NCBI GenBank assembly: GCA_020057295.1
Contig: JAGVGF010000006.1
Span: 32,001 to 96,000 of the forward strand
Direction of reading: 5' to 3'
Length of the DNA: 64,000 nt
Source: an archaeon
Lineage (GTDB): Archaea; Nanobdellota; Nanobdellia; Woesearchaeales; UBA9642
The number at the start of each line of letters is the position of its first letter. Within the stretch, counting starts at the first letter, position 1. A program made the translations under genes and the position numbers. The notes beneath the pieces were generated by a model, which saw nothing but the letters and a program-made list of their open reading frames with translations, had not been told where the DNA came from and did not search any database. Below, piece by piece: positions 23,859 to 36,874 of the stretch.

Positions 23859-24746
23859 ATGTTGGATGAATCAGAAATTTCAAAGTTATTAGCAGAGTAC
23901 AATAGTGTTAAGACAGAAGTTAGAGATTTAAGAAATAAGATTAATTTTCTTGACAGAAAAAAAGAAGAACTATTTAGAGAAAAGAGAAAAATTTCTTCAG
24001 ATATTCATTCTAGAATAAGAGTTGCTAAAGATTCTAAAGATAAACGTAACAATTTAACTGAAGCTGTAAAAAACACAAAACATTCTAAGGAAGAGATTGA
24101 AGCAAAAATTATCGTATTAGACGAGGAAGTAAAGAAATTACGTGAAGAGAAATCTAAGGTTTTACAGAAGAGCGGTGTTGAAGATCCTATGATGTTAAAG
24201 AAAAACATCAAAAAATTAGAATTCAAAATTGAAACTGAAGGTTTAACATTTGAGAAAGAAAAAGAGATGATGAAAGTTCTTTCTAAGATGAAGAAGCAGT
24301 ATGAAAATACAAAATCTATAAGTGATATCGAGAATAAATTAGGTTCTAAATTCCGTGAATTAAGAGATTTAAGAACAATGATAGATATGACTAAGAAGAT
24401 TGTTCAAGTATCGGCTAAAGAATCACAAAAACATCACGTTGAATTAATCGAATCATCCAAAGAGATTGATGAACTAAAGAAAAAAGAAGATGATTTTGAA
24501 GGCAATGCAAACAAGTTTAAAGCAGAAATATCAGAGCTGAATCAAGAATTAGATAAAAAGTTTGAATTAATGAACTCATTAAAACAGAAATTAACAGATA
24601 ACAATGTTAGATTAAAAGAAGATCAAGAAAAATCTAATCACGAGATATTGAAGCAAAAGGATGAACAAGTCCAAGAAAAAATTAAGACAGGAAAGAAATT
24701 AACAACAGAAGATTTATTAATTCTACAGCGAACAATGAAAAATTAA
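23859..24746 (+). CDS. Archaeal long coiled-coil protein (COG1340-like)
   Basis: Heptad E/K-rich; LEFKIETEGLTFEKEK and GKKLTTEDLLILQ motifs. Confidence 0.75.
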   Translation: MLDESEISKLLAEYNSVKTEVRDLRNKINFLDRKKEELFREKRKISSDIHSRIRVAKDSKDKRNNLTEAVKNTKHSKEEIEAKIIVLDEEVKKLREEKSKVLQKSGVEDPMMLKKNIKKLEFKIETEGLTFEKEKEMMKVLSKMKKQYENTKSISDIENKLGSKFRELRDLRTMIDMTKKIVQVSAKESQKHHVELIESSKEIDELKKKEDDFEGNANKFKAEISELNQELDKKFELMNSLKQKLTDNNVRLKEDQEKSNHEILKQKDEQVQEKIKTGKKLTTEDLLILQRTMKN

Positions 24747-26089: not shown

Positions 26090-26578
26090 ATGTTTAAAAG
26101 AGGTTCGAGAATGCGTCTTAAACGCAGATTCTATAAGAGAGGTATTTCTCCATTAATAGCTACTGTTCTATTGATAGCTTTCGCTGTATCTATTGGTACA
26201 ATGATTATGAATTGGGGAAAAGATGCTGTGGCTGTCGGTGATTGTACAGAAGCTAAACTTGAAACTCAAGTGATTAATTCTAAACCATTATTTTGCTATG
26301 ATACATTAAACAACAAGGTTAATGTAATGGTCAAGAACGTTGGGAGTGTAGATGTTACTAGATTGAAGATGCGTGTAATAACTCCTGATTTTAATACTGA
26401 AGATAGAGAAATAGTTGATAGTAGTATCAAAGCAGGAGATATTAAAACTAAAAATATTGATTATACTAAAGCTGGAAAATTCCGTGTAGAAATAATACCT
26501 GTAATCACTGTTGGCGGAAAAGAAAAAATTTGTTCTGAAAAATACATATTTGTAGATGATATAGATCGATGTAACTAA
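26090..26578 (+). CDS. Archaeal pilin/archaellin-like protein
   Basis: KRG|ISPLIATVLLIAFAVSIG. Confidence 0.85.
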   Translation: MFKRGSRMRLKRRFYKRGISPLIATVLLIAFAVSIGTMIMNWGKDAVAVGDCTEAKLETQVINSKPLFCYDTLNNKVNVMVKNVGSVDVTRLKMRVITPDFNTEDREIVDSSIKAGDIKTKNIDYTKAGKFRVEIIPVITVGGKEKICSEKYIFVDDIDRCN

Positions 26579-26622: not shown

Positions 26623-27411
26623 ATGGAACTCCGTTTAAACATTAATAAGACTATTGAACAGAATGCCGAAGTGTACTTTGAGAAAGCCAAAAAGTATAAG
26701 AAAAAAATTCCTGGAATATTAAAGACCATAGAATTGTATAAGGATAAACTTTCCAAAGCACAATCAGCGTATGATACTGAACAATCTAAACCTAAAATTG
26801 AAAAGATTAAGAAAGAATGGTTCGAAAAATTCAGATGGTTTATATCATCTGATGGATTCTTAGTTATTGGTGGAAGAGATGCAACTACTAATGAGATTAT
26901 AGTTAAAAAATATATGAATAAGAATGAGATAGTATTTCATACAGAATTGCCGGGAAGTCCATTTGTAGTAATAAAAAATCCTGATAATCAGAACATACCC
27001 GAACAAACTATCAAAGAATCCGCAGAATTCTGCGCAAGTTTTAGTAAGTCTTGGAAGTCTGGAAGAACAACAGCAGAAGTATATCACATAACTCCAGAAC
27101 AGGTTAGTAAAGAAGCACCGGCTGGAATGGCCGCTCTTGCTAAGGGATCGTTTATGATTAATGGAAAAAGAAATTATGTGAGTCCTGCATTAAATCTTGC
27201 GATATGTAATATTGGCAGAATAATGGCAGGTCCTGTTTCAGCTGTAAAAATACAATGTGAAGATAAGGATTTAAAATATGTAGAAATAATACAAGGTGAA
27301 GATAAATTAAGTGATGTCGGTAAGAAAGTACAGAGAATAATCGGTGGAGAATTGGATGATATAATAAGAAATCTTCCATCAGAATGTGCAATCAAAAAGG
27401 ATAAGAGGTAA
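26623..27411 (+). CDS. NFACT-R (DUF814) RNA-binding protein, short Rqc2/NEMF-like
   Basis: QNAEVYFEKAKK, WFEKFRWFISSDGFLVIGGRDATTNE, KGSFMINGKRNY. Confidence 0.9.
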   Translation: MELRLNINKTIEQNAEVYFEKAKKYKKKIPGILKTIELYKDKLSKAQSAYDTEQSKPKIEKIKKEWFEKFRWFISSDGFLVIGGRDATTNEIIVKKYMNKNEIVFHTELPGSPFVVIKNPDNQNIPEQTIKESAEFCASFSKSWKSGRTTAEVYHITPEQVSKEAPAGMAALAKGSFMINGKRNYVSPALNLAICNIGRIMAGPVSAVKIQCEDKDLKYVEIIQGEDKLSDVGKKVQRIIGGELDDIIRNLPSECAIKKDKR

Positions 27412-27415
27412 AGAA

Positions 27416-27676
27416 ATGGATAAAGTATTCAAGGAACTAAGGAAGGAATCAAAAATTTTAGCCCCGAATATAATTATTGGGAAGAATGGTTTAACAGATG
27501 GTGTAATTAGAAATATAAATTTCGAATTAAATAAACAAAAAATTGTAAAGATAAAGATTCTCAAAAGTTATATTGATACGGCAGGGAAAGATAAGACTTT
27601 TGCAGATATAGCAGAAAAAACTGGTGCAAAAGTAGTTCAAAAAATAGGTTTTACGATAAGTTTAACAAAAAGGTAA
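27416..27676 (+). CDS. YhbY/CRM-domain RNA-binding protein
   Basis: IIIGKNGLTDGVI...IVKIKIL...VVQKIG. Confidence 0.85.
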   Translation: MDKVFKELRKESKILAPNIIIGKNGLTDGVIRNINFELNKQKIVKIKILKSYIDTAGKDKTFADIAEKTGAKVVQKIGFTISLTKR

Positions 27677-27768
27677 CTTATAGACAAGAGATAAGAGTAT
27701 TCATTCAAGCGTAAGGTTTATAAATATGTGTTTCTAAGGATATTATTGCGTAGATGTTAGTCTCTTTA

Positions 27769-27886
27769 AAAAGAGGATATTTGTTTAGTAGGCTCATACA
27801 GATGTTTAATTGAGTGTTCAGCCGAGTTCATTGTAGCTAGACATGATTTCGAGAATTCGCTAGCAACTAAACAAATATAAAAGAGG
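27769..27886. repeat. 102-bp element with perfect 13-bp terminal inverted repeats flanked by 8-bp direct repeats (MITE-like or structured leader RNA)
   Basis: AAAAGAGG[ATATTTGTTTAGT 27777-27789 ... ACTAAACAAATAT 27866-27878]AAAAGAGG. Confidence 0.6.
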
Positions 27887-27891
27887 ATATT

Positions 27892-29385
27892 ATGGCTGAT
27901 GATAAAAAGGAAGAAAAAAGCCCTATCGAACTAGTTGGTCAAGAGTGGAATTGGGCTGAAGAAGAATTTGAAGATAATAAAGATGTATATGTAAAGACTA
28001 ACTATCCCGAGCCTCATAGAAAGTTTAGGATAATTTACGAAGCATTCTCATTATCTATGGAAGAAACATATTATTGGATACTTAATGCTTTACAACAAGA
28101 TATGGCGTATCCTAAAGTTGAAAAGATAACAGACATGTTTTCTAGTGCAGAACACAGTTCGATATTTGGTCAAGCATCACAAAGATTAAGCATACAACAG
28201 GATCGTATACAAAATCTACTCGCTACTGTTGGTAAAATGGTTAAAGATGTTTTTGCTCTGGTTAGAGAATTAAGAATTATTGATGAAAGAATAGCTGCTT
28301 ATGATGCATGGAATAAGGAACACAGCAAGTCTGCAGATTCTACTTTAAAACAATTATATATTGACTTTGTAGAAAGTCAAGGCGGTCAAACCAAACCATC
28401 TTCAATATATGGTTTAGCGCAAAATTTAGGTTACGTTACATTACCAGATTTCTATTTTAATACTCGTGTTTTTAAAAAAGAAGATGTCGATAAGACTGTT
28501 GATGCACTATCTACCAATAGCAATCTTAAAAATGTTTTAAGAAGAAAATTATTCGAGTTCATTGTGTGGAAGGAAGAGACTGAAAAAGAAATTAGAAATA
28601 GGAGAACGTTTAGTTTACAATATTTAAGGCAACATTGGGCTGTTATCAAAATGTATATGGGATGGTTAAAGCCTTATTTAAGAAATGTTAAAAGACTTAG
28701 TATGAATGATCAGCAGATGCTTGGCCCAGAAATAATTTCTGCATTTGAAACTGCTGCTTTAGAAATTGAAATATTAGCTTATGATCCAACAAAAGCTAAA
28801 AAAGATGTTAGTGGATGTATATTAATAAATTTCAAATATTTTGTCAAGCCATCATTAAGTTATCAACAGCCAGAAAGTTATCAGAGAGGTCCAATACATG
28901 TTGGTAAGGTAGATATAACTATGAGAAGTTATGGTTGGTCACAGGCTGAAGTCGATGCGTATAAAAATTATCGTAGCAAGGAAGAGATGGACTTACTAGG
29001 AATTATTGACGCATCATTAAAGGCTGCAATGGATACGTTATCTGAGGATTTAGAAAAATATCTTGCACAAGCCGGAGAGGAAGAATTCAAGAAAAAATTT
29101 GAGGAAAAAGCTGCAGCAGAAAGTAAGGATGATAGAATATTTATTTACAAATTTTTAAATATAAAGACTGTAAAGAAAAAACAACACGGTGCTAGTGCTG
29201 CCGAACCGTTTATTGCAATATTTATGGGATTCGGAGAAATATTGGGAGCATTTCTTCCATCAAAGGTCGAGCAGATTAAGGTCACAATTAGTGATAAAAA
29301 TGATAAGGCAAAAAGTGATGCGTCTGGTAAGTTAGTAAAATTATGGGGAATATATAAAAAGTCTCATCAAATGCTTACATGGTAA
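27892..29385 (+). CDS. Hypothetical protein, mostly helical, first gene of a three-gene operon
   Basis: 497-aa ORF, gagg SD, no recognised catalytic motif. Confidence 0.85.
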   Translation: MADDKKEEKSPIELVGQEWNWAEEEFEDNKDVYVKTNYPEPHRKFRIIYEAFSLSMEETYYWILNALQQDMAYPKVEKITDMFSSAEHSSIFGQASQRLSIQQDRIQNLLATVGKMVKDVFALVRELRIIDERIAAYDAWNKEHSKSADSTLKQLYIDFVESQGGQTKPSSIYGLAQNLGYVTLPDFYFNTRVFKKEDVDKTVDALSTNSNLKNVLRRKLFEFIVWKEETEKEIRNRRTFSLQYLRQHWAVIKMYMGWLKPYLRNVKRLSMNDQQMLGPEIISAFETAALEIEILAYDPTKAKKDVSGCILINFKYFVKPSLSYQQPESYQRGPIHVGKVDITMRSYGWSQAEVDAYKNYRSKEEMDLLGIIDASLKAAMDTLSEDLEKYLAQAGEEEFKKKFEEKAAAESKDDRIFIYKFLNIKTVKKKQHGASAAEPFIAIFMGFGEILGAFLPSKVEQIKVTISDKNDKAKSDASGKLVKLWGIYKKSHQMLTW

Positions 29386-29440
29386 ATTTGTAGAATATAA
29401 CATAAAAATAAGAAAAGTAAAAAACTAATTATAATATAAA

Positions 29441-30169
29441 ATGGTAAAAACTGCTAATGATGTTATGGATATTACTCCTTTAGAGAGAATGGATAAATTA
29501 GAAGATATAGAGACAGAGAAACGTGGAACGATTGCTTCTAAAAAGAAAGAGTTTGAAGAATTAGAAAAAAATACAAAAAAAGGATTAGAAGAACTAGATC
29601 AAAAGAAACGTAAAGAATTTGAAGAATTAGACAAGAGAAAACAAAAAGATTTAGATGAACTAGATAAGAAACGTAAAGAACTCAAGGATTTAGAGGATAA
29701 AAAATTAAAAGAAATTGAAGAGACTGAAGCGCTAATTGAGAAAAGTTTTCAAGAATTGATGCGTCATAAAAGAATATTATTAAAAGAAGAGGATGACAAG
29801 GATCAAGATCGAAGAAAAACTAGCGCCGCAGAGATTAACTTAGAAGAGGTCGCAAATACAGCGCCGAAAATTGTTCCTGAAGGCGTGCATATGAATTATA
29901 GTAAATTTTTTGAGAACTTGCAAGCCCCACAAAAGTTTTACGAAATTAATAATCCATCATTTTATGAAGGATTAACTGGTTTAAGAAATAAAGCTGCTAC
30001 AGGACAGATTACTCCTGAAGAAGAAATGTTTGTTGAAAAACTTCGTAATCAATTCGAACAATTTACACAAAATCAACAGTATACTGAAAATGATCAGAAT
30101 CAATATATTAAGAGATCTATGAGTGTTATCGATCAAATTGGTAAATACCATAAGATGAGGAGCGACTAA
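29441..30169 (+). CDS. Coiled-coil protein with 11-residue K/E repeats
   Basis: KKKEFEELEK / KKGLEELDQ / KRKEFEELDK / KQKDLDELDK repeats. Confidence 0.75.
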   Translation: MVKTANDVMDITPLERMDKLEDIETEKRGTIASKKKEFEELEKNTKKGLEELDQKKRKEFEELDKRKQKDLDELDKKRKELKDLEDKKLKEIEETEALIEKSFQELMRHKRILLKEEDDKDQDRRKTSAAEINLEEVANTAPKIVPEGVHMNYSKFFENLQAPQKFYEINNPSFYEGLTGLRNKAATGQITPEEEMFVEKLRNQFEQFTQNQQYTENDQNQYIKRSMSVIDQIGKYHKMRSD

Positions 30170-32089
30170 ATGGCTATATTTAATATAGATTATTTTAATA
30201 CTTTAGATCGCGGATATTATAGTGCTCAAACAATGAAAGATGCTAAGGAAGCTGGTACGTTTGTTGATTTTCCACAAGATGCTGGTCCAGGTACAAAATT
30301 AACTGCTAAAGAAATTGGTACTACGATGGCTCCAGATACGTATCCATTACAAGAATTACAGGCTAAGATAAGGACTGGAGCTGCAAGATTAGAGATTGGT
30401 TTTGCTGGTGCAGGTAAGAGTGGTTTTGGCGGAAGGGGAGCTACACCAGAAATATTAGGAAAACTTGAAAGAGAACAGTTTAGAGAATTACAAAAGGTCA
30501 GTGATGTTAAAGTTACTACACACGCCACATTTGGCAAACAAGGACTTTCTGGATTAACACAACAAGGATTCAGTGAGGATGAAGCTCAAAAAACTTTAAA
30601 AGAAATAAACAAAGCAATAGATTTTGCTGCAACAGCAACTCGCGGTGGAGCGGTAGTATTTCACGCTGGCGAATGGCAGAGACCTATAATGGATGCGGGC
30701 GAAAAGAATCCAGATAAAACTTCAGCACGTGAAAGAGTTTTCAGCGAGTATGAAAACGAATATCAAAAGGCTCCAATATTTTTAGCTGATGAACGTACTG
30801 GACAAATAATGGCATTAAATAGAGATATGAAATTCTATTTCCCAAAAGAAAAACGTGATCCAAAAACAGGCATGGTATACGTTGAAACAGCACAAGATGG
30901 CACTCCTATAATAGAAGAGATGGATTATGGTCACGCATTAGGTCATATTAAACAACGTTATAAAGATAAACCTGAAATTCAAGGTAAGAGTGATGCTGAA
31001 ATACTATTATATGGTTATAGGGAACAACAATTGAAAGAAGCTAAAGGTACAGCTTTAAGATATACGGAAAATTTAGATAGTTTCAAGAAAAAATTAGAGT
31101 ATGTACAGGATCAACTCAAATTACAAGAAAAAATGTGGAATAATACTTCTGAAGAGGATCGTTGGAAATTACAGGAAAAGGATCCTAACATCCCAACGAT
31201 TTATAGACCTGTAAAAGATATTTTAGCTGAAGAAGAAAAAAATCTTAGACATCAAATTGAAGGAGTACAAACTACGGCAGCTGCAGCTCAGGAACAGTAT
31301 AAAAAGATTGAAGAGGAACAGAAGAGATTTAAGCCTATTGAAGAAGTTGGTATAAAGAGAACAGCAGATACTTTAGCCAAAGCAGGTATAAAGGCAATGA
31401 TTACTTCAGATCAGTATAAAAAAGATTTAACTGAACCAATATTTATCGCTCCAGAAAATGTCTTCCCAGAATTTTATGGTTCACATGCAGATGAAATGAT
31501 TAGAATAATACAAGATTCTAGAAAGACAATGGCTGATAAGTTAAAAAGGCAAGGATATAGTGCTGAAGACGCTAAAAAGAAGGCAGAAACACATATTAGA
31601 GCTACACTAGATACAGGTCACTTGAATAATTGGCGTCAACATTTTCAGGCTAAAACCGATGAGAATGGTAAGGTTTTAGAAAATCCTGAGCAAGTTGATA
31701 AGAGATTTAAGAAATGGTATCTTGAACAAGTTCAAAAGATGGTTGATAAGAAAGTTTTAGGGCACATACATTTAACAGATAATTGGGGTTATGATGATGA
31801 ACATATTACACCAGGTCAAGGTAATACGCCTACAAAAGAAGCTGTTAAAATTTTAGAGGAAGCTGGATTTAAAGATTTCATTGCTGAAGTTGGAAGCTTT
31901 AATTCTAATACAGTATTACAAGATACATTAGCAGAATTAGGTAGTCCAGTATATGCACTTGATAAGAGAATGACATTCGGAAAATTACGTCACGGACATT
32001 TTGGTTACAATGCACCTCCAAATTATATAGTTGGAGGATATGCTCCTAGTAATGACTTCAGGTTGTGGAGCGAAGTGCCATTAGAATAA
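30170..32089 (+). CDS. Xylose-isomerase/AP-endonuclease-2-like TIM-barrel metalloenzyme with large helical insertion
   Basis: THAT, VVFHAGE, APEN, LDTGHL, HIHLTDNWGYDDEHITPGQGN, FIAE. Confidence 0.85.
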   Translation: MAIFNIDYFNTLDRGYYSAQTMKDAKEAGTFVDFPQDAGPGTKLTAKEIGTTMAPDTYPLQELQAKIRTGAARLEIGFAGAGKSGFGGRGATPEILGKLEREQFRELQKVSDVKVTTHATFGKQGLSGLTQQGFSEDEAQKTLKEINKAIDFAATATRGGAVVFHAGEWQRPIMDAGEKNPDKTSARERVFSEYENEYQKAPIFLADERTGQIMALNRDMKFYFPKEKRDPKTGMVYVETAQDGTPIIEEMDYGHALGHIKQRYKDKPEIQGKSDAEILLYGYREQQLKEAKGTALRYTENLDSFKKKLEYVQDQLKLQEKMWNNTSEEDRWKLQEKDPNIPTIYRPVKDILAEEEKNLRHQIEGVQTTAAAAQEQYKKIEEEQKRFKPIEEVGIKRTADTLAKAGIKAMITSDQYKKDLTEPIFIAPENVFPEFYGSHADEMIRIIQDSRKTMADKLKRQGYSAEDAKKKAETHIRATLDTGHLNNWRQHFQAKTDENGKVLENPEQVDKRFKKWYLEQVQKMVDKKVLGHIHLTDNWGYDDEHITPGQGNTPTKEAVKILEEAGFKDFIAEVGSFNSNTVLQDTLAELGSPVYALDKRMTFGKLRHGHFGYNAPPNYIVGGYAPSNDFRLWSEVPLE

Positions 32090-33721: not shown

Positions 33722-36700
33722 TCAACACTTATACACATTCATATCGCTTAGTGAGCCACTTACACATACTTCTGATGCATCTTTAAACACATCATTATAT
33801 TTATTCCAATTTGCAAGTACTCTTGTTGCCATCGTCGTATCCTTTGCATCATATCCGTGTACTAATAATTTATAGCTACTTCCAGTTTTTACTAAATGTA
33901 TTTTTCCGACACCAGGAGTATCTTGTACCGTACACTCAACAGGATTTCCATAAATACTTGCTGCTACAAGATTAGCACATATTCCACCAACAACAATCAT
34001 ATTTGTATTATAATCATCATTAGATATTTGATCATCAAATATAACTATTCCTGGAGGGAATGGATTATTTCCAGCATATCTTTGCATACTTGCAACTATG
34101 TCGGTTATACCCATCACATCATCAACAGCGGCTCTTCTACCAACAACAAACATTGTGTCAGGTTGACCTCCTTTATTTAAGAATGGTTGAGGGAAATCTT
34201 TTAATGTTTCTGTTGATTGTTGTACTGTCACGAGTGGAGCACAAGCATATACTGTTAAAGAATTTGTTAATTCTCCTGTAACACATAAGCTATTAGTATT
34301 GGCTGTAATGTTTTCAAGATTATAATCTTTCCAATTTGCAAGAACTTTTGTAGCCCTCTTCAAATCTTCATCGCTATATCCGTGAACTATAATTACAGGT
34401 TTATCATAATCAGTTACTATGAAATCTATACGTCCAACACCTTCAACGTACCCCTCGGCACAATTTGTAGGATTATCATAAACTTTTTCAGTTATGCTAT
34501 TACTACATATTCCACCAATTACTATAAATCCTTTAGAGTCCCAATCATTTTGAGTTATTTCTGTATCTAACTTAGCCCATCCTACTCCAACGTTTCCGGT
34601 TTTATTAGAATATCTTTGTAGACTCGCCGCAATATCCACTCCTGAGAGAACATTTACAGGTGTTGCTCTAGCACCTACAACAATTACTCCGGTAAAATCT
34701 TTTATGTCATTAAAGAAATATTTAGGATAATCTTTAAGGATCAGTGAAATTGCTGTACTATTCTGTATACATGCACCATTAATACATCCATTTTGGCATG
34801 TTTGCCAACCTCTCTTGAAAAAGTTTCCATCACAATAATATTCTGATACAGATGGTCCTGTAGGACTTGGTGCATTTAAACAATTTGTACAACACGAATC
34901 ATTAATAGAAACTACAAATCCGTCAGGGAATGTTTCTGTAACAGTTCCCTTAGTATATATATTTCCATTATCAGACTTACTACAAGTAACATCTGCTAGT
35001 TTTGCAAAGTGTCTAACAAATTTCTGCGACGCATTATAAGATCTTCCACCATAATCATAATTCATAGTTACAAATATATCATATGTTCCGGATGTTAATG
35101 CTAATGGTAAATTTATGTTGAATTGTTCAGTTGAATAACTATATCCTGAAGATAAACCGGTCACAGTTTTTACTTCAGATAAATGCAAAGCAGGTATACT
35201 TAAAGTAATATATACTGCACCTACTGTTGATGGGAAGTTATTGATAACTGAAACATCAGCATAGATATAATCTGCATTATATGCTCCTATAACGACAAAG
35301 TCTTGTGGATATACATTAACACTATGGAATTGTACACCTGAGTTTGTAGTAGAATTAATACATGCTCCTAATCTACATCCATTTGGACAATCATTCACTA
35401 TGAAAAATTCTCTATATGCAGGCAATGTTGCTTTATCACAGTACGCTTCCGCAATGTAGCATGCATTTCCACTACATGAATCGTTGTCAAAATTATTATA
35501 GTGATACCCTTGACCATTGTAAGAAACATACACAGAACTTCCTGATATAGGTGTTACACATTTATCGTTATAAAAACTGCCATCAACAGTTGTAAAACCT
35601 TTAACATAATAATATTTGCCACCGTCAGTATCTGTACATGTTGAATAAACATCTTCCGCAATATATCTCGCATAATATGAACCAAATATTACTGGAAAAT
35701 TGGTAAAAGGTCTATTTTCACCAATTACAATAACAAAATTTTCTGAAATCCATACTAGAAGGGTGTCGTTGTCATTATCTACATTGGCCGATACATATTT
35801 TCTACCGTTATGTTCCAAAATTGTGTATGAACCTTTATTACTTATATCTGCTAAAGCAACCTTTAAGAAGGATTGCGCTTCTGAAGAAGAAGAGAATACT
35901 GCAACAGTAGCTCTTGCTGTAATATCATTAGTAGAATCATAATATTCTATATTATATGCTGAATGCTTAAAACCATATTCTGTGGATTCAATTAAAGAAG
36001 GAGTTCTATTAACAAAATTTCCGATAGTAGTCACTATAAGATATTTGGAAAAGTCTATAGATATTGGAGTAGATTTACATGCTCCATCATCACATCCGTT
36101 TGGACAAGTATATTTTTCTCCAGATCCGCCTTTGTCAAGTGTACAAAATAATTCCATTACAGTATTACTATCATAACAATGATCTTCGCCAGTATCATCT
36201 TCAAAAGTTACAGTCCCTTTTAAATAATAATTTTTACCATCTGGATATTGCGAATTAGCGTCAGTATCTGTACACACTGATGCTTTCTTATATACTTTGA
36301 ATTGTCCATGCATTGTTCCAGGAGAGTATCCTGTACCATCATTGAATTTTAGAGTCCATGAATTGTCAAAATTATATTTTATGCCATAATATCCTTGCCT
36401 AGTATTTAGTCCTGGACTGTTAGAATAAAATGGGCCATAAGTTCCTGCACGCCATGCAGTATTGTGATTAAATATTAATTCTCTACCCACAGTAAAATGT
36501 CCTAAATAAATTTCAGAAGGCATTGGAGGATAATATCCGTAAAACGATCCTAATTTTATAGTGTGATTAAATAAATATAAATCTACATTAGCTGCTGCAT
36601 TAAACCATTCCATTTTAACATAATAATCTCCATCTTCACGTATTATTAAACGATTTTTTTTTGAGGCTGAATCGGTATAAGTTTCTGAAGTAACATCTAA

Positions 36701-36874
36701 AGCATCAAGATTAGAGTCTGTAGAAGAGTACTGCAAACCATCAGTTACTGCTCCTATAGCCATTCCAATATTATTAGCAGCTAAACTTGTTGTAGATGAT
36801 GCATATATCATCCCTACAATACCCAAAAATGCAACTATACCCACTACATATAGAACTATTGATTCTTCACGCAT
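33722..36874 (-). CDS. Large cell-surface protein with Cys-rich CTDTD repeats and two S-layer-like C-terminal domains
   Basis: N-terminal TM; CTDTD...KGT...CPNGCxxGAC x3; duplicated LKDxP...VVG...DIxASxQRY...GGICxN...HGY...ATxVLANW. Confidence 0.8.
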   Translation of the reverse strand: MREESIVLYVVGIVAFLGIVGMIYASSTTSLAANNIGMAIGAVTDGLQYSSTDSNLDALDVTSETYTDSASKKNRLIIREDGDYYVKMEWFNAAANVDLYLFNHTIKLGSFYGYYPPMPSEIYLGHFTVGRELIFNHNTAWRAGTYGPFYSNSPGLNTRQGYYGIKYNFDNSWTLKFNDGTGYSPGTMHGQFKVYKKASVCTDTDANSQYPDGKNYYLKGTVTFEDDTGEDHCYDSNTVMELFCTLDKGGSGEKYTCPNGCDDGACKSTPISIDFSKYLIVTTIGNFVNRTPSLIESTEYGFKHSAYNIEYYDSTNDITARATVAVFSSSSEAQSFLKVALADISNKGSYTILEHNGRKYVSANVDNDNDTLLVWISENFVIVIGENRPFTNFPVIFGSYYARYIAEDVYSTCTDTDGGKYYYVKGFTTVDGSFYNDKCVTPISGSSVYVSYNGQGYHYNNFDNDSCSGNACYIAEAYCDKATLPAYREFFIVNDCPNGCRLGACINSTTNSGVQFHSVNVYPQDFVVIGAYNADYIYADVSVINNFPSTVGAVYITLSIPALHLSEVKTVTGLSSGYSYSTEQFNINLPLALTSGTYDIFVTMNYDYGGRSYNASQKFVRHFAKLADVTCSKSDNGNIYTKGTVTETFPDGFVVSINDSCCTNCLNAPSPTGPSVSEYYCDGNFFKRGWQTCQNGCINGACIQNSTAISLILKDYPKYFFNDIKDFTGVIVVGARATPVNVLSGVDIAASLQRYSNKTGNVGVGWAKLDTEITQNDWDSKGFIVIGGICSNSITEKVYDNPTNCAEGYVEGVGRIDFIVTDYDKPVIIVHGYSDEDLKRATKVLANWKDYNLENITANTNSLCVTGELTNSLTVYACAPLVTVQQSTETLKDFPQPFLNKGGQPDTMFVVGRRAAVDDVMGITDIVASMQRYAGNNPFPPGIVIFDDQISNDDYNTNMIVVGGICANLVAASIYGNPVECTVQDTPGVGKIHLVKTGSSYKLLVHGYDAKDTTMATRVLANWNKYNDVFKDASEVCVSGSLSDMNVYKC

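Follow-up and report, generated by a model that had tools for sequence, protein, structure and literature searches.

Here we describe a cluster of three genes, called A, B, and C, in a 64,000-nucleotide (nt) stretch of contig JAGVGF010000006.1 (GenBank assembly GCA_020057295.1; positions 32,001 to 96,000, forward strand) from an archaeon of the order Woesearchaeales. This whole stretch is referred to as the window, and its own coordinates are used throughout. The source genome (1.2 Mb, 6 contigs) is rated 100% complete, and the window is AT-rich, with a GC content of 0.29 to 0.35. A first-pass annotation, made from the letters of the window, had placed three plus-strand open reading frames (ORFs) here, and all three were recovered as given, with products of 497 (A), 242 (B), and 639 (C) residues (Table 1). 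B and C abut as claimed, with the TAA stop codon of B ending at 30169 and the ATG of C beginning at 30170; a ribosome-binding-like GAGGAG lies within the end of B, and a GAGG is present upstream of the ATG of A. A and C form a pair that is inherited vertically, is near-universal, and usually lies side by side, and the module to which they belong is phylum-wide, beyond the scale given in the first-pass annotation.

Distribution and synteny of A and C

Two genome samples were searched: an order-level sample of 121 genomes, nearly all from different families of the order, and a phylum-level sample of 251 genomes, each at least 90% complete and all from the same order or the same class, with 63 from outside the order. 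In the order sample, A was present in 113 genomes and C in 116. The A profile matched 248 of the 251 genomes of the phylum sample, including all 63 from outside the order, and the C profile matched 247 (E ≤ 1e-5), to which one divergent copy can be added. This copy is in G311, a genome of 0.6 Mb in a single contig, where a 690-residue ORF with PF01261 matches split by ∼1.2 kb lies directly downstream of a 576-residue A homologue. The other genomes missed by the C profile were two with short PF01261 ORFs only (G259 and G274) and one with none (G171; 30 contigs, 97% complete). A still gave no match at E ≤ 0.01 in G037, G242, and G288, which are assembled in 70 to 100 contigs. The counts include genomes flagged as unpublished (G112 in the A and C searches of the 121 genomes; G306 and G307 in the A, C, and D searches of the 251 genomes; G307 also in the A-C synteny and D-position counts), and omitting these three shifts any count by at most 2.

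The first-pass annotation had made its case depend on synteny in relatives, and that synteny was found. Positions were compared for the 118 genomes with both genes among the 150 best matches listed for each profile search. In 92 of them, A immediately preceded C in the same orientation and within 3 kb; the two were farther apart or on opposite strands of the same contig in 7 and on different contigs in 19. The gaps between A and C were bimodal: 18 were shorter than 200 nt, and most others measured 470 to 1,000 nt, the size of a B gene. Among eight genomes from outside the order, A and C were adjacent or separated by small ORFs only in five (G130, G134, G195, G298, and G311), far apart on one contig in two (G151 and G125), and on different contigs in one (G128). 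Given the almost universal co-occurrence and the synteny of A and C, the three genes A, B, and C can be considered a functional unit.

No published description of the module was found in the literature consulted, which included passages of PMC9258230 and PMC8204110; further supplementary rows of the latter, and other papers, may bear on this. PMC8204110 reports a module of mostly unknown families shared by Pacearchaeota and Woesearchaeota (module_98), and PF01261 proteins appear in its data set as one lumped family only, fam00074. A and C could not be mapped to any of its families.

C is an inserted TIM barrel with a conserved putative metal site

C had been assigned to the AP_endonuc_2/xylose-isomerase superfamily, and the assignment was borne out by a PF01261 match of 54.4 bits (cutoff, 31.1 bits) that falls in two stretches split by an insert. 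The precomputed labels of all 81 C homologues examined also read PF01261. An AlphaFold2 (AF2) model built with 42 homologues (predicted local distance difference test score [pLDDT], 84; predicted template modeling score [pTM], 0.80) is a (β/α)8 barrel that can be superposed on solved members of the superfamily, with the barrel formed by residues ∼43 to 171 and 424 to 596. C thus belongs to the PF01261 superfamily; membership in the Nfo (endonuclease IV) family or in the epimerase families is not demonstrable.

The best solved relative of C is MJ1311 of Methanocaldococcus jannaschii (PDB 3WQO), a "D-tagatose 3-epimerase-like protein" of unknown function, which was found by phmmer (E 5e-4), by profile (E 1.1e-10), and by Foldseek (E 1.4e-5) and is 22% identical to C. 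MJ1311 has 293 residues and no insert; C differs from it in being extended by 215 to 356 residues after strand 3, in having conserved tails, and in having partner genes of its own.

The insert of ∼250 residues that had been noted between the VVFH (H165) and APEN (E429) motifs corresponds to residues 172 to 423 of the AF2 model. It is modeled well (pLDDT, ∼90) and consists of a small β subdomain (residues 202 to 251), a short helix, and four long helices (residues 275 to 300, 302 to 325, 348 to 386, and 390 to 415). Because it begins directly after the strand-3 ligand H165, the insert is placed by textbook TIM-barrel topology on the catalytic face. The spacing from H165 to E429 was 215 to 356 residues in all 24 C orthologues examined, and the sequence of the insert was variable among the 42 homologues. 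An Atlas search with the insert gave no lead (scores of 0.76 to 0.77 only), and no shorter, uninserted close relatives of C were found; the short C-family matches (17) were fragments at contig ends.

The metal-ligand set described in the first-pass annotation is kept. Nine His, Asp, or Glu residues lie at strand ends of C (H118, H165, E429, D481, H484, H534, D543, H545, and E573). In the 42 homologues, H118, H165, E429, D481, H484, H534, D537, and H545 are invariant, and D543 and E573 are nearly so. Eight of the nine putative ligands align to identical residues of MJ1311, and the paper describing the MJ1311 structure reportedly noted the same ligand conservation. In the endonuclease-IV-like protein of the same genome, the residues aligned with H534, H545, and E573 are H, H, and E. 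Judged from the ligands reported for endonuclease IV and MJ1311 rather than from a residue-level superposition, the nine positions would be the ligands of the three-zinc center of endonuclease IV. Across the phylum sample, the set was kept in 23 of 24 orthologues, the exception being locus L045.

One genome (G002) carries two tandem full-length copies of C on its contig C11 (5801 to 7567 and 9422 to 11191), with 36% and 39% identity to C of the window.

A is a strongly conserved protein, and B is a fast-evolving helical protein

No family was assigned to A in Pfam, NCBIfam, PHROG, or PADLOC, and a scan of 41 aligned A members at E ≤ 1 gave nothing consistent. The A profile had no match among PDB sequences at E ≤ 10, the A model had none in the PDB (Foldseek) or among viral models (BFVD) at the threshold applied to both (E ≤ 0.001), and a fold search of the Atlas returned no relative. 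The AF2 model of A (pLDDT, 74; pTM, 0.52) is composed, in order, of an N-terminal β region, a long helical hairpin (residues 94 to 142 and 210 to 269), a three-stranded long sheet (residues 289 to 349), and C-terminal helices, and is unconfident at residues 423 to 466. The alignment of the 41 sequences has a mean column identity of 51% and 55 invariant columns, a degree of conservation like that of a housekeeping protein. In a library of 1.8 billion proteins, the family makes up 700 representative clusters at 50% identity, and the source names of the homologues are all "hypothetical," mostly from Woesearchaeota, Nanoarchaeota, or Nanoarchaeia.

A homologues with 40 to 70% identity were also seen on many contigs titled "uncultured Methanosarcinales archaeon," "Alphaproteobacteria bacterium," or "Methanobacteriota archaeon" (for example, at loci L058, L060, L064, L065, and L068). 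These contigs are probably mislabeled bins, so the source names understate the lineage specificity of the A family.

A C-terminal amphipathic or hydrophobic helix had been ascribed to A. The hydrophobic part of this description holds: the segment AEPFIAIFMGFGEILGAFL is conserved, being the most hydrophobic 19-mer of the protein, at the same place, in 30 of the 41 members, with P439 invariant and F440, F444, and G446 nearly invariant. The last helix, however, is not amphipathic (moment, 0.53, versus 0.56 in shuffled sequences). The usual transmembrane (TM) threshold of 1.6 was reached at this segment by 3 of the 41 members only. The suggestion that the system might act at the membrane was thus not upheld, as no TM segment was found and the hydrophobic segment of A is below the threshold in 38 of the 41 members. 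The suggested assembly of the three proteins into a physical complex was not supported either.

B is rich in charged residues (48 Lys plus Arg and 55 Asp plus Glu; 43% in all) and belongs to no family in the Pfam, NCBIfam, or PHROG libraries. A search with the single B sequence found relatives in only 15 of the 121 genomes, and of 13 matches outside the genus of the window's source, at least 9 lay in the A-C slot (after A, between A and C, or before C). In a neighborhood survey of 23 loci with genes around A and C, this slot was occupied by a same-strand ORF of 156 to 275 residues in 19; BLAST grouped 12 of the 19 ORFs, and most, when aligned, have in common a P-x-E-R...L-K-x-L motif near the N terminus along with other short motifs. 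In the remaining four loci (L032, L040, L046, and L055), B is absent, and A and C are adjacent.

The 11-residue repeats reported for B were confirmed by Tandem Repeats Finder (TRF), which detected a 33-nt unit, and by autocorrelation of residue classes, which was 0.565 at lag 11 compared with 0.264 ± 0.053 in shuffled sequences. The peaks at lags 11 and 22 were equaled in none of 2,000 shuffles, and B has a hydrophobic period of 3.6 and the periodicity of hendecad-repeat helical proteins. The alignment shows that the repeat block is an insertion peculiar to the B of the source genome.

Gene D, the promoter region, and the wider neighborhood

Downstream of C lies a fourth gene, D, whose 269-residue product matches PF01909 (27.9 bits; cutoff, 21 bits). 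The Pol-β motif G-S...D-x-D is present, with G46, S47, D60, and D62 invariant in 15 orthologues. A D gene (product of ∼266 residues) follows C in 15 of the 23 surveyed loci, three of them outside the order, and the D family was found in all 251 genomes (E ≤ 1e-20), usually as two paralogues. In 121 genomes in which positions were compared, the best D copy was less than 300 nt downstream of C in 32, 0.3 to 6 kb downstream in the same orientation in 23 (thus within 6 kb in 55), elsewhere on the contig of C in 15, and on another contig in 51. From these positions, D is a frequent, not an obligate, companion of C.

D resembles Pol-β enzymes of the kanamycin-nucleotidyltransferase type in its layout of an N-terminal G-S...D-x-D domain and a helical C-terminal domain within ∼260 residues. 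The match to kanamycin nucleotidyltransferase itself is at chance level past the first 70 residues (E 0.54), and whereas that enzyme is encoded by a resistance gene, D is a universal core gene in the sample. The N-terminal domain of D also matches, weakly, the generic MNT-type candidate defense model PDC-S09 (E 1.2e-11), and distant D orthologues match MntA (27 bits). In the source genome, a second D-type copy lies on another contig (G000:C4:61051-61821), within a 630-residue protein (locus L137, ORF 988 to 2880) whose N- and C-terminal extensions have no assigned family.

TABLE 1 Features of the A-B-C-D locus in window coordinates
Feature	Coordinates	Strand	Remarks
NFACT-R (26623-27411) and YhbY/CRM (27386-27676), upstream neighbors	26623..27676	+	Pfam; associated with A only within part of the order
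TATA-box-like TTTATAAATA	27717..27726	+	166 to 175 nt 5' of A; possible promoter, weak evidence
Gene A, 497 residues	27892..29385	+	Family spread phylum-wide, without known relatives
Conserved segment of A, residues 437-455, AEPFIAIFMGFGEILGAFL	29200..29256	+	Moderately hydrophobic; KD19 1.57
Gene B, 242 residues	29441..30169	+	Highly charged coiled-coil or single-helix protein, fast-evolving
Tandem repeats in B, 33 nt (11 residues)	29542..29671	+	TRF period 33, 3.9 copies, 71% matches
GAGGAG, ribosome-binding-like	30157..30162	+	Within the end of B, 8 nt before the ATG of C
Gene C, 639 residues	30170..32089	+	Xylose-isomerase-like (PF01261) TIM-barrel metalloenzyme, putative MJ1311/endonuclease IV ligand type
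Insert of C, residues 172-423	30683..31438	+	Between strand 3 (H165) and helix 3/strand 4 (E429)
C-terminal tail of C, residues 597-639	31958..32086	+	Nearly invariant (...PSNEWxLWSEVPLE); pLDDT 33-43
Gene D, 269 residues	32190..32999	+	Pol-β-type nucleotidyltransferase with a C-terminal helical domain; PF01909, 27.9 bits

A TATA box of its own and a long structured leader had been proposed for the cluster. The word TTTATAAATA is present, in the 215-nt gap between the YhbY gene and A, but TATA-like 8-mers of this kind occur about once per 1,153 nt of strand in the window. As such words are common in an AT-rich window, TTTATAAATA is a plausible promoter of A and no more. The leader (27745 to 27895) did not stand up as a structured element: its folding energy of −30.3 kcal/mol is close to that of shuffled sequences (−27.6 ± 3.3 kcal/mol; z, −0.83), 42 of 200 shuffles fold equally well, and no Rfam match was found at E ≤ 1. 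A long leader is also not conserved, since 10 of 22 related loci have a TATA-like word 29 to 67 nt 5' of A; in 18 of 23, fewer than 140 nt separate A from the preceding gene.

The Pfam identities given to the neighbors (NFACT-R, YhbY, NTP_transf_2, and TYW3) are correct. The RNA-processing neighborhood that they were said to form is conserved in part: the nucleotidyltransferase recurs in 15 of the 23 loci, but NFACT-R and YhbY lie upstream of A in only 7 each. Other recurrent neighbors are a Na/H exchanger that carries a TrkA domain (6 loci), a small class I methyltransferase between C and D (5 loci), and TYW3 (3 loci).

Three substitutions of a core function were considered and rejected. C as the only AP endonuclease of the lineage was set aside given the separate 292-residue Nfo-like gene, the module as a replacement of the RNA exosome given two RNase PH genes, and D as a replacement of the CCA-adding enzyme given a cca_archaeal match (240.9 bits) in the genome.

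Several observations concern other genes of the window. The match of the NFACT-R protein (262 residues) to the archaeal RqcH model, which has 645 positions, spans only positions 381 to 638 (290 bits; cutoff, 400), and no adjacent ORF encodes the N-terminal half; judging from this partial coverage, it may be a split or truncated ribosome rescue factor. The ORF upstream of NFACT-R (26090 to 26578, plus strand) encodes a 162-residue, pilin-like protein with the N-terminal segment RGISPLIATVLLIAFAVSIG, which resembles the signal of archaeal type IV pilins. Among families, this protein matches CARDB alone, and weakly; homologues lie upstream in 3 of the 23 loci. A DUF7121 coiled-coil protein of 295 residues (23859 to 24746, plus strand; 45 bits) has weak SMC-like matches and is a further long-helix protein near the module. 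The 1,050-residue product of the ORF at 33722 to 36874 (minus strand), with a hydrophobic N terminus and repeated Cys modules (...CPNGC..GAC...), is a probable secreted or surface protein.

A proposed function for the module

Because nearly all genomes of this phylum of tiny symbiotic archaea keep the three genes together, A, B, and C probably share a core task. We tentatively propose, giving the idea slightly less than an even chance, that A, B, and C, in many genomes joined by D, make up a core module that is inherited vertically and in which C is a putative phosphate ester hydrolase partnered by A and B. C would be the catalytic part, hydrolyzing a phosphate ester at a multimetal center rather than isomerizing a sugar, and its insert would act as a lid that gates the substrate or as an arm that holds it. 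A and B, neither of which has a catalytic motif, would bind C and target, regulate, or assemble it. A nucleic acid end or backbone, RNA more than DNA, would be the favored substrate, on thin evidence, because the phosphoesterases known to adopt this fold are nucleases and because the recurrent neighbors include a nucleotidyltransferase, methyltransferases, YhbY, and NFACT-R.

A number of results weigh against this proposal. Concerning the chemistry, C had no match to the NCBIfam nfo model (TIGR00587/PRK01060) at E ≤ 0.1, and the same genome encodes a separate 292-residue endonuclease-IV-like protein. None of the three proteins is basic, and the MJ1311 structure paper is said to have seen no DNA-binding groove. 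In 8 of 24 C loci, all of one subclade (L040, L041, L043, L044, L045, L049, L050, and L052), D543H and E573S occur together, as do replacements of N486 and N538; in L045, H118, H165, and H534 have been lost as well. Judged from these replacements, the metal center of C may have been remodeled in that subclade. Concerning the gene context, A and C are unlinked in some well-assembled genomes (G151, G125, G193, G294, and G224), D adjoins C in under half of the genomes and has a paralogue elsewhere, and the RNA-related neighbors are found in 7 of 23 loci only, all within one order.

A more ambitious version, which we regard as doubtful, goes beyond a hydrolase with partners. A, B, and C, with frequent D, would then be an undescribed machine made of an endonuclease-IV-type phosphodiesterase with a helical arm, a new-fold protein, and a charged spacer helix. 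It would have arisen at the root of Nanoarchaeota and be indispensable to their host-dependent life; one such role would be to process a polymer that comes from the host or is specific to the lineage, such as RNA ends, DNA, or lipid head groups.

Alternative explanations

The sources annotate C as a sugar or sugar-phosphate isomerase or epimerase, and in that case, its insert would be decorative and A and B would be mere neighbors. Sugar epimerases of this fold hold one or two metals by four of the residues listed above; this holds for the PF01261 members ketose 3-epimerases, UlaE, and xylose isomerase, and C has five more. These five further His/Asp residues, which an epimerase would not need, are invariant in C. 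Among curated epimerase models, the best match, to fructoselysine 3-epimerase, scores 20.5 bits against a cutoff of 305 and covers residues 523 to 570 only. On the ligand set and the curated models, C is not an ordinary sugar epimerase, an identity that the first-pass annotation had named as one that would refute its reading. C is, moreover, kept in ∼98% of genomes that measure 0.5 to 2 Mb and have little metabolism, and its synteny with A extends across orders. We therefore consider a common epimerase unlikely.

A membrane salvage machine is a comparably unlikely explanation. In such a machine, C would cleave a phosphodiester of a lipid head group or of a small molecule from the host, A would anchor the complex, and D would reactivate the product with a nucleotide. 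The lineage is described in reviews as lacking lipid and nucleotide synthesis, which counts in favor of this explanation, as do the conserved hydrophobic segment of A and the layout of D, which is like that of small-molecule nucleotidyltransferases, with weak matches to kanamycin nucleotidyltransferase. The AP_endonuc_2 superfamily also has a small-molecule phosphodiesterase model, CbiR, which the other barrel protein of the genome matches weakly. The insert of C matches apolipoprotein A-I weakly (E 0.006), but this composition-like match is at chance level and was treated as compositional. Neither a TM helix nor a signal peptide can be discerned in the three proteins, the hydropathy of the A segment and the nonamphipathic last helix argue against an anchor, and no transporter is consistently linked, the Na/H exchanger being found in 6 of 23 loci.

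A specialized second DNA repair endonuclease, that is, an endonuclease IV paralogue held on DNA by coiled-coil partners, as in repair complexes that combine a nuclease with coiled-coil proteins, is again improbable. C may have the ligand type of endonuclease IV (Nfo; PDB 2X7V, 4HNO, and 1QUM) but differs from it in having no nfo model match and in carrying a large insert on the catalytic face. The other barrel protein of the genome does match nfo, at 46.4 bits, which is below the cutoff of 129.65.

The sole rival regarded as effectively excluded is a mobile defense or toxin-antitoxin-like island that pairs a nuclease with an MNT-type nucleotidyltransferase, to which the PDC-S09 and MntA matches of D would point: the cluster is single-copy and near-universal in the 251 genomes, its conservation tracks kinship, its GC content is not atypical, and A, B, and C have no PADLOC match.

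Significance

Nanoarchaeota (in source labels, Woesearchaeota, Pacearchaeota, and relatives) belong to the most widespread of the uncultivated archaea, and the genes that distinguish them are mostly annotated as "hypothetical." The module described here is a small gene set kept in ∼98 to 100% of the sampled genomes, down to 0.5 Mb, and combines one enzyme whose active site can be read with a strongly conserved protein that has no detectable relatives. It offers a concrete target for expression: three or four soluble proteins, a predicted metal center, and point mutants. Identification of the substrate would reveal a core process that differs between these symbionts and other archaea and would probably also give a function to the MJ1311-type barrels of other archaea.

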